From the UHGV virus genome UHGV-1461890: a stretch of 41,432 nucleotides of DNA; one strand, 5' to 3'. This document shows positions 18,901 through 21,900 of this stretch, in pieces. The notes under the pieces were generated by a model, which was given only the letters and a program-made list of their open reading frames with translations, made no database searches and was not told the DNA's origin. The position numbers and the translations under genes are program-made. The DNA comes from a virus. Within the stretch, counting starts at the first letter, position 1. Each line of letters starts with the position of its first letter.

Positions 18901-21900
18901 GGATAGAACAGCTAAGGTTGAAAAGGCTCAGAAAGAGGTTCAAAAAGTTGTCTCAGGCAAGAATGGTATAGAAGGTAAGGTTCACTTTAAAGGTGATGAA
19001 CTTGCTTTAAAAGAGGTACAAAGGGAATCTTTGAAGCGAATGGGAATACTCTCGGAGGTTCTTGGTTTAAATTTCCATGTGTTTGAGTCTTATGTAGATA
19101 AAAATGGCAAACGAGTATATAAAGACACCGATGGAAAGATAAAAAAAGCTCCTAATGGCTTCTACAAAAACGGAGAGATTTACATTGACCTTAATGCCGG
19201 TAAAGATGGACAAGGCATAATGATTTACACCGTTGCTCACGAGCTTACCCATTGGATTAGAGAATGGTCTCCTGCTAAGTTTAAGGTCCTTGCCGATTTC
19301 CTGTTCGAACAGTATGGCAAAGGTAATCGTAATGTCAACAAGTTAATTGAGGACCAAATTACAAACGCCAAAAACAATGGCAGAACCATTGATTATGATA
19401 CAGCCTATGAAGAGGTTGTAGCTGACTCTATGGAGACAATGCTTTCCGATGATAATGTTCTTGAAAAAATAATGCTCTTAAAGTCTAAGGATGAAAGCAT
19501 TATCAAGAAAATCGGTGAGTTCTTTGAAAAAATCATCAATAGCTTTAAAAATCTGATGCAGAAATATCCTCCCGAAACTACCGAGGGTAAACTTGTATCA
19601 CAGATGAATGATGCTTTTGAGGAACTTCAAAGTCTCTTCGCTGAGGCCCTTGTAGATGCAAGTAACAATTATCAGGCTAATAAGGGACAAAAAAACACCA
19701 CCTCTGAGGGTGATGTGAAGTTACAAGCAAGAGAACTACAACGAAAAGACCCTACCACACTCAAAGAGGACGAGCTTACAACCTTGCTTGAGTATACAAA
19801 AGATAAAGTTTTGTCAGATGATACATATATTCCTGTGAGAATAAATACTCCTCAAATCCTTATTGCTTTTGCTAAAGAATTTGGGTATACATTAGAAAAT
19901 CATCCTCTTGCTATGCAAGTATATAAGGCAAGACAAGCTCTTTCAAATGAGGAAAATTGGGATGGAGATTATCAAGATAAGCCTCACGATTTGTCACCTG
20001 AAGAAGTGATAGGTATTATTCGAGCTATGAATAATCCTTCACACCTTGTTTTTCAAACCGAAAATGAGCGCTTTGCTGAGATTGTAAAGTTCGAAAAAGA
20101 AGGTAGCAAAGAAAAAGCGTATGCTATAGTAGATTTTTCAGATGTAAATAAAAACCCTGACCTTATGAATGGATACAAAGGTGGTAAATACAATATTTTA
20201 GTCACAGTTTATCCTTCAGAGGATGCTGCCGACCTGAAAAGATATTTATCAAACAAAAACCATAAGGTGCTAACAGGTGAACAAATGAAAAAGAAAGGTC
20301 TATCGCAAGGAAGCTACGGCGGCAACACGCCCTCGCTATTAAACGATTCACCTTTCTTCGAGGATAGTATACCACAAACTTCCAAAAAAAGTCAAGAAAA
20401 ACTGTCTGGTAGAGAAAACTTTATTGGCGAAAGAAACCTCGAAGACTTTGCAGAGGCTAAGGATACTGAAGGTAAAACCTTGTTCCAATATCGTGCGATG
20501 GAGTCTGACGAAGATGTTTATCGAGAAATGCTTAAAACTGCAAATATAATGAGTGATTCAGAGATAAATGCTTTGTTTGACACCGTTGATAGAGCAATGG
20601 ATATTATTAAGGATAATCTTGAAATCCTTGACTATGCTTGGGAAACCGACATTGACGATAGAGCGTTTAATCCTGTGAAGAAAAATACTGATAAGTTATA
20701 TCAGGTAAGCGTAGACTTTTCTACTTTGTGCAGAAAGAGACTTTTGCAGCAGGCTATTCAGGCTCATTTGCAAGAGGCGCTTAACAGACCACTTACAAAA
20801 AATGAAGGAATTGCTATAAGAGATGCTCTTATGACCATTCAGGAAGAAGGCAAACAAATTGAGATAGCATGTGCGCTTTGCTATGTTGAGTCTGCAAGAA
20901 TGAAATCCCCGGCACAGATAAAAAGGTTTATTGATGGTAGAGAAACTGTTATTAAAAATTATTTTGCAGGAAAGTCGGCTGAGGTAAAGGCTCAACTTAA
21001 AGAAGCTGAGGCAAAAGCAAGAGAAAGACTTGGTGTCTATGATACTCCTCTTACTAAACTTCCAAGTAAGGCTCAAAAAGACATCCGAGGCGCAAAAAAG
21101 GATGTAATATCTTCCTATGTTCCTTCTGCTAAAGAGCAAGAACTTATTGAAATTGCAAAAGGAATGTCGGTTAATGATTTTGTTACTCCAAAGGGTCTTG
21201 AAACTCTTATAAAAAAATATCCTGATTTATTTGATGCGTATGCAAGTTTCATAGTAAATGCTACTCATTCAAAGGGCATTGAAAACGATACTTGGTGGAG
21301 AGCAGGAGACTCTAAAAATATTGGAGATACTTTGATTGCGAATATGAATGCCGAGAATGGCCTTCGCTCACAGTCATGGTCTGACTTCCAAGTTATCCAC
21401 CTACTTGACTATATGGCTGCAACCATTGAGCTTTCCACAAGAAAAGCCAAGATGCAAACGTATACCAAGGTGCCTGACTTTGTAGAACTTATGGGTAGCA
21501 CAGGTGAAATGATTAACCTATCTTTAATTCCTACAAGGAATTTTAATGGTACTCTTGATTTTGATGGTATTGAAGGTATGGAATTTGAAGAGTCTTTGAG
21601 GCTTCGTGACAAATACCATGCTACAGCAGGTACTATTGCTATAGGTGTAGATAATGTTCAAATACAAATGCTCCTTGATAGTATGAATATTGACTACGTT
21701 ATTCCTTATCATAGGTCAGGTATGGCAAAAGCAGTTCGTAAGGCGATGCATATACCTACTTGGACAGAGTATGAAAATTATCAAAGTGAGAAAAACCTCT
21801 CAAGAGATGCTGCGAGGGAACAGGCTAAAAAGTATGGTGTAAAACTGCTCTCAGAAAGCGATTCTAACTATCAAAAACATCCTAACTTCTCTGATTGGTT

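Follow-up and report, generated by a model that had tools for sequence, protein, structure and literature searches.

Phages and plasmids inject giant polyvalent proteins along with their DNA, and the domain predicted to occur most often in these proteins is the zincin-like peptidase. Such peptidases are reported as their commonest and best-connected domain, often occur in several copies and are linked to ADP-ribosyltransferase (ART) and MuF-C domains (PMC5512222), MuF-C being a predicted RNase. In their core, a helix and a three-stranded sheet come before two catalytic helices, which are separated by inserts that vary (PMC5512222). In the crystal structure of ArdC, an anti-restriction protein encoded by plasmids, the metal is bound by H201, H205 and E229, E202 serves as the base and H205 is oriented by E228; the elements follow one another in the order alpha4, beta6-8, alpha5 (HExxH), alpha6 and alpha7 (EE/Glu) (PMC7213743). 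Here, we analyzed a metallopeptidase-like module in a giant open reading frame (ORF) of the UHGV virus genome UHGV-1461890, a stretch of 41,432 nucleotides (nt) referred to below as the window. The ORF (15917..27265, + strand) is uninterrupted and encodes a polyvalent protein of 3,782 amino acids (aa), as seen from the ORF list, its translation and matches to ART-PolyVal and PHROG 22978. The core of the module (aa 1018-1218, about 200 aa; 18968..19570, + strand) is supported by an AlphaFold2 model, cluster profile matches and hhalign alignment to ArdC. Our comparisons indicate that it is probably a zincin-type peptidase domain with E1166 as the predicted third ligand, and they point to the ArdC-like 'MPTase' domain, a typical component of polyvalent proteins, as its closest relative.

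The initial annotation had reported an HExxH motif at nt 19217-19267 (+), and in-frame translation of this segment indeed gives IMIYTVAHELTHWIREW, aa 1101-1117 of the giant ORF, with H1108, E1109 and H1112 numbered correctly. HExxH proper corresponds to nt 19238-19252. It is the single HExxH in the giant ORF, where 0.043 would be expected by chance from the ORF's own composition, and its conservation across relatives shows that the motif did not arise by chance. With aa 951-1300 as query, 29 homologs at 40-55% identity were retrieved, several of which also contained MuF_C, ART-PolyVal or LPD3, domains that lie beside the module in relatives. When a profile of the module was compared with 1.84 billion cluster representatives, 3,271 clusters matched, 2,497 of them at E<=1e-10; the matching representatives were mostly proteins of 3,000-3,900 aa carrying the module around residue 900-1500.

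Two sets of sequences were used to assess conservation. One comprised 164 domains extracted from cluster representatives (clustering at 50% identity), which share 32-73% identity with the window; the other, obtained independently, comprised 62 relatives on viral contigs of IMG/VR, at 23-56% identity. T1105, H1108, E1109 and E1166 were present in all 164 cluster representatives and H1112 in 163, and all five residues occurred in each of the 62 viral-contig relatives. The position of E1165 was occupied by E or D in 93%, and A1169, D1170, E1173, D1192 and Y1217 were kept in 93-98% of the 164 representatives. Ahead of the HExxH helix, G1081 and G1095 were 100% and D1091 99% conserved. The module is the best-conserved segment of the giant protein (approximately 49% identity vs 25-45% elsewhere).

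These alignments also bear on the third ligand, for which E1131 in FEQYG (nt 19307-19309) had been proposed. This residue, 19 positions past H1112, did not withstand the comparison: Glu was present in 93 of the 164 representatives (Lys in 41) and in 24 of the 62 other relatives, that is, in 39-57%, and was otherwise replaced by Lys or Arg. Such a poorly conserved position cannot be a conserved metal ligand, and the short-spacer gluzincin arrangement (HExxH plus Glu about 20 residues downstream) is not the one found in the giant-ORF module. An invariant Glu, E1166, occurs instead within AYEEVVADSME, 54 residues past H1112, and E1166-V-V-A1169 agrees with (E,H)xx(A,F,T,S,G), the motif quoted for the glutamate helix of gluzincins (PMC7213743). 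The gluzincin idea of the initial annotation was thus right in kind, in that an ArdC-like zincin site is predicted, and wrong in its choice of third ligand, which would be E1166 and not E1131. Another candidate glutamate helix, 'SVEELV' (aa 1139-1147), came from a low-confidence hhalign extension and was rejected as a ligand source because the window has N1141 and K1142 there and no Glu.

For comparison with ArdC, the protein encoded by plasmid R388 (NC_028464, 22591-23484, minus strand; PF18818 match, E 1e-48) was used, and a profile of its peptidase domain built from 92 sequences was aligned with the family profile by hhalign. The match spanned the strand and the HExxH helix with 86-94% probability (E 5e-6 to 1e-7). 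After deletion of the insert (aa 1119-1157), a single alignment covered both motifs with 90-95% probability (E 2e-6 to 4e-8), and none of 150 column-shuffled controls reached the full-domain score (50 vs a null maximum of 23). Searched alone, the region from the glutamate helix onward had AFEELIAEIGNCMLC (A226-C240) as its best ArdC match, with a score of 19.8 that was reached by 1 of 150 shuffles; this alignment places E1165 on E228 and E1166 on E229. In the strand ahead of the helix, ArdC AYYNPTGDYIHM corresponds to NGFYKNGEIYIDL in the window, and aa 1080-1095 of the window (NGFYKNGEIYIDLNAG) align with ArdC 'AYYNPTGDYIHMPPIA'. The active-site helix reads TLAHEATHW in ArdC and TVAHELTHW in the window, and the glutamate helix YAFEELIAEIGNCML and TAYEEVVADSMETML, respectively. 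All five ArdC site residues (H201, E202, H205, E228 and E229) have conserved counterparts in the module. We consider the relationship suggested by these profiles moderately strong, not overwhelming.

Several features are common to ArdC and the module: a TxAHExTHW helix; ahead of it, the conserved strand '...G(D/E)xI(H/Y)(M/I)...'; further downstream, a glutamate helix in which (L/V)(I/V)A(E/D) comes after an 'EE' pair; and the same secondary-structure order. ArdC is delivered by a mobile element, as the giant protein is predicted to be. However, the His-to-Glu spacing is 54 residues in the module and 24 in ArdC, a difference due to a two-helix insert in the module where ArdC has one helix. In addition, the giant protein lacks the ArdC-N single-stranded DNA-binding domain, and its context is that of a phage virion protein, whereas ArdC belongs to a conjugative plasmid.

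An AlphaFold2 model of the trimmed core (aa 1018-1218), built from a 28-sequence alignment, had a mean predicted local distance difference test score (pLDDT) of 84, with values of 90-97 over both catalytic helices, and a predicted template modeling score of 0.73. It begins with a strand, a helix (aa 1033-1049) and a small sheet whose last element is the conserved strand IYIDL. Next come the HExxH helix at aa 1101-1117, a pair of insert helices at aa 1119-1153, the glutamate helix at aa 1160-1176 and then two more helices; as modeled, this order agrees with that of both the polyvalent-protein peptidase core (PMC5512222) and ArdC (PMC7213743). The conserved strands ahead of the active-site helix (aa 1080-1095; 19154..19201, +) are supported by conservation, by the ArdC alignment and by the model, and general zincin architecture predicts that they form the substrate-binding edge strand. 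Translation, conservation, the model and the alignment with ArdC TLAHEATHW all define the active-site helix (19217..19267, +). The insert that holds FEQYG (19271..19375, +) consists of the two helices at model residues 102-116 and 123-136, and conservation and the ArdC alignment identify the glutamate helix DTAYEEVVADSMETML (19394..19444, +), in which E1165-E1166 correspond to nt 19409-19414. In the predicted active site, H1108, H1112 and, as third ligand, E1166 would bind the metal together with water, E1109 would be the general base and E1165 would orient H1112. Structure searches did not retrieve ArdC, nor did they retrieve any SprT/Spartan/Wss1 or ImmA/IrrE structural match.

Curated families were searched as well. 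Pfam, applied to the whole giant protein and to its segments up to E = 10, found ART-PolyVal alone and no model for the HExxH region, and an NCBIfam search of the giant protein gave nothing relevant. Searches of PDB sequences, whether the query was one sequence or a profile, returned only spurious repeat-protein matches, such as the designed repeat protein 7rdr, which was disregarded; matches to Myb_DNA-bind_3 were likewise set aside as spurious. Below threshold, the only recurring Pfam and PHROG matches of the module were zincins: MPTase-PolyVal, M78, WLM, YgjP, eCIS_core (DUF4157), M91, DUF6782 and PHROG phrog_87. PF18818 (MPTase-PolyVal) weakly matched 4 of 30 family members (best E 0.0044), and the window sequence itself had no match. 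M78 and WLM each scored 15.2 bits against cut-offs of 22 and 26, and eCIS_core 14.7 against 22; DUF6782 reached a best E of 0.019, YgjP was also below its gathering threshold, and phrog_87, annotated as 'metallo-protease', matched weakly at E 0.005-0.009. The SprT/Spartan/Wss1 (WLM) and ImmA/IrrE (M78) families have a small helix-sheet-HExxH core like that of the module and matched it weakly (E 0.01-0.2). In SprT-type enzymes the third ligand is His, not Glu.

Phage-type polyvalent MPTases, such as the C-terminal region of N4 vRNAP and P1 DdrB, resemble the module in having HExxH, a glutamate helix and a variable insert. They too belong to multi-domain proteins of very large size that are associated with the virion and also carry ART and MuF-C, and they are sometimes present in several copies; the giant proteins of the window lineage have no RNA polymerase, unlike N4 vRNAP. 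Direct hhalign comparison of the module with the MPTase region of N4 vRNAP gave no significant match (2.4%). PF18818 also fails to detect the N4 vRNAP peptidase region (aa 2130-2448) that originally defined the class, and therefore the curated model covers only part of the published superfamily. With tblastn, the module had no match in 50,697 phage records and none in 72,556 plasmids, and the C-terminal region of the giant protein had a single match, an unannotated faecal phage contig.

The remainder of the giant ORF does not fit its earlier description as an otherwise non-enzymatic-looking structural protein. An ART-PolyVal ADP-ribosyltransferase domain (PF18760) occupies aa 2188-2354 (22478..22978, +; E 1.8e-21, 77.8 bits vs a cut-off of 31.2), and by the usage of Iyer et al. 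2017 (PMC5512222) this makes the product a polyvalent protein. The HExxH module forms part of phrog_22978, a giant-protein family of 3,513 positions and 'unknown function'. This family also covers the conserved C-terminal region (aa 2520-3594; 23474..26698, +; E 1.2e-184), and aa 3100-3600 were found in 92 of 96 giant relatives. Between module and C-terminal region lies a 'cargo zone' (aa ~1261-2519; 19697..23473, +), recognized by its variation in length and content among relatives: in 45 full-length relatives the gap measured 242-1,710 aa, and the zone contained ART in 31 of 96, a Cys-containing region in 54 of 96 and, in some, MuF_C straight after the module. This segment behaves like a swappable cargo slot in the window and in homologs P0030-P0171. 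In the window, the large Cys-containing region (aa ~1480-2160; 20354-22396), with the conserved Cys motifs VDFSTLCRKR and IEIACALCYVESAR, forms an uncharacterized cargo domain that separates the peptidase module from the ART domain. This region is also seen in P0036 and had no Pfam, PHROG or PDB-sequence match.

Two further features of the giant proteins were observed. A Gly/Ala-rich hydrophobic stretch (aa ~430-640; 17204-17836; GVGGAVGLGAKAAGTLGKVAGAATLGSSAAG), common to 51 of 96 giants, recalls membrane-active segments of tape-measure and ejection proteins. Two relatives contained two copies of the module, P0030 at aa 436-620 and 917-1101, and P0031, a protein of 5,240 aa, at aa 1224-1410 and 2893-3077.

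From the conserved residues and the ArdC alignment we infer metal binding and proteolytic activity, and the main role of the module may be self-processing or cargo release, a proposal that we judge to fall a little short of probable. The giant virion-associated protein would be packaged and is probably delivered into the cell along with the DNA. The peptidase would act on the giant protein to which it belongs, either in cis or with one copy cleaving another, and such cleavage would detach the swappable downstream cargo (the Cys-containing domain and the ADP-ribosyltransferase) from the conserved regions at both ends of the protein, inside the capsid or following ejection. This role is suggested because the variable segment sits directly downstream of the module and because autoprocessing has been proposed for the class (PMC5512222). 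Virion delivery is supported by analogy with phi24B gp47, a polyvalent protein of 2,811 aa that was detected in virions by proteomics, is invisible in the capsid reconstruction and is proposed to be ejected (bioRxiv 10.64898/2026.04.10.717836). That protein, from a phage of Escherichia coli and compared here by description only, contains LPD5, LPD1, LPD38 and MuF-C, unlike the giant ORF. Taking peptidase identity and role together, we regard a self-processing or cargo-releasing zincin as reasonably likely and as the best overall explanation.

Several observations weigh against this explanation. The Pfam, NCBIfam and PDB sequence models all fall short of significance for the module; even the family consensus scored 16.0 bits (E 0.013) with PF18818, whose gathering cut-off is 27.5. 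Only with the insert removed does the hhalign probability reach the customary 95%, and the removal was chosen after the motifs were known. Assignment of the site to H1108, H1112 and E1166 was derived from conservation and alignment, not from model coordinates, and proteolysis in the window lineage is a prediction only. As to the role, N4 vRNAP, which also has such a domain, is packaged unprocessed (PMC5512222), so self-cleavage is not a given, and the ArdC peptidase was dispensable for the single phenotype tested, anti-restriction (PMC7213743).

Alternatively, the same peptidase domain could be an effector that, after delivery, cuts proteins of the host, for example regulators, proteins bound to DNA or components of defence or restriction. 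Iyer et al. gave this as an explicit alternative (PMC5512222), and it is favored by the nearest structural relatives of ArdC, the DNA-associated proteases Spartan and IrrE (PMC7213743), and by the ADP-ribosyltransferase directed at host macromolecules that the same protein would co-deliver. Strong conservation of the module while the cargo varies fits a function in its own right, but conservation beside a variable cargo slot suits a release protease equally. The anti-restriction phenotype of ArdC being independent of its peptidase (PMC7213743) counts against an effector as well, and the effector substrate is purely hypothetical. We consider an effector role rather unlikely; it is not mutually exclusive with self-processing, and both could hold.

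Two other explanations are less probable. The module could be a virion cell-wall enzyme that cuts peptidoglycan peptides or another envelope component at genome entry, with the giant ORF a tape-measure-like or ejection protein carrying a muralytic domain. Pfam finds no other wall hydrolase in the virion gene block, the sole one being the Amidase_3/SPOR endolysin of the lysis module (31183-31893), and the hosts are thick-walled Bacillota. The hydrophobic Gly/Ala-rich stretch and the position of the ORF just upstream of the BppU_N tail-fibre/baseplate gene are also in line with such an enzyme, and a similar role has been the subject of speculation for the peptidase domain of phi24B gp47 (bioRxiv 10.64898/2026.04.10.717836). 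However, the best homology is to ArdC-type cytoplasmic protein-directed zincins rather than to muralytic peptidases, and the NAD-dependent ART on the same polypeptide needs cytoplasm; because of this relationship and the co-resident ART, entry through the wall is an improbable function. Phage peptidoglycan peptidases are known for M23, M15 or NlpC/P60 chemistry rather than for a gluzincin site with HExxH. Finally, a non-zincin fold, either a structural or metal-binding domain without peptidase activity or another hydrolase, might have acquired HExxH and Glu by chance. This is very improbable given that four gluzincin residues are invariant over approximately 226 diverse sequences while their neighbors vary, that two separate motifs map colinearly onto the crystallographic ligands of ArdC in shuffle-controlled alignments, that the secondary-structure order agrees and that this protein class is already rich in such peptidases (PMC5512222).

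Returning to the zincin with a self-processing or cargo-releasing role, a more specific version can be put forward tentatively, although we find it somewhat unlikely in full. The module may represent a distinct polyvalent-peptidase clade that has no curated model and carries a two-helix insert over the active site, and may act as the fixed 'release protease' of a giant-protein family of more than 3,000 clusters in temperate gut-Oscillospirales phages, cutting at slot boundaries after delivery. If so, the layout would be a conserved N-terminal part, a peptidase, a swappable slot (ART, MuF-C RNase or Cys domain) and a conserved C-terminal part, and this family would be a natural chassis for delivering varied effector proteins.

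This kind of domain is already described, the concept having been published in 2017, and the lineage adds an unmodeled member; the gain is incremental. In the literature, we found no report of any polyvalent-protein zincin cutting a defined substrate, and the ArdC peptidase is without an assigned role. The lineage is abundant in phages of human and animal gut Clostridia, where its PHROGs are of 'unknown function' and no Pfam or NCBIfam model covers it. Assignment of H1108, E1109, H1112, E1165 and E1166 therefore provides a usable annotation and precise targets for mutants. In addition, an invariant peptidase just upstream of highly variable cargo makes a convenient system for testing the cargo-release idea.

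The virus of the window is a temperate phage of gut Oscillospirales. Its structural genes include those for a terminase, a portal and a major head protein, and the closest database relatives of the portal are uncultured human-faecal phages. Temperate-phage genes include a large serine-recombinase integrase, a RecE/RecT pair, a DNA methyltransferase, a DnaD-like helicase loader and an endolysin, with coordinates 32111-33607 (-), 31183-31893 (+, the Amidase_3/SPOR endolysin), 36561-38353 (+) and 39486-41014 (+). Related loci were found in metagenome-assembled genomes of Oscillospiraceae, Acutalibacteraceae, Faecousia and some Lachnospiraceae, on contigs of up to 197 kb, and are consistent with prophages in Oscillospirales. 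The giant ORF follows the head, internal-virion and tail genes and directly precedes a tail-fibre gene with BppU_N and a collagen repeat (27317-29203). The order of major head protein, internal virion/tail proteins, giant ORF and tail fibre is kept in relatives.

No tail-tube or tape-measure gene was recognized among the tail genes of the window, and the giant ORF itself might occupy the tape-measure position. Signals for the tail were mixed, with a PHROG 'internal virion protein' at 10692-12413 and Pfam DUF859 ('Siphovirus protein') at 13142-14698. A 'podovirus-like' label, based on the PHROG 'internal virion protein' matches, was dropped after DUF859 and BppU_N had been matched, and tail type was left unassigned because podovirus-type and siphovirus-type matches are both present. 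An ORF of 157 aa at 15107-15580 (-) lies wholly within a + strand ORF (14720-15901) and is probably spurious.

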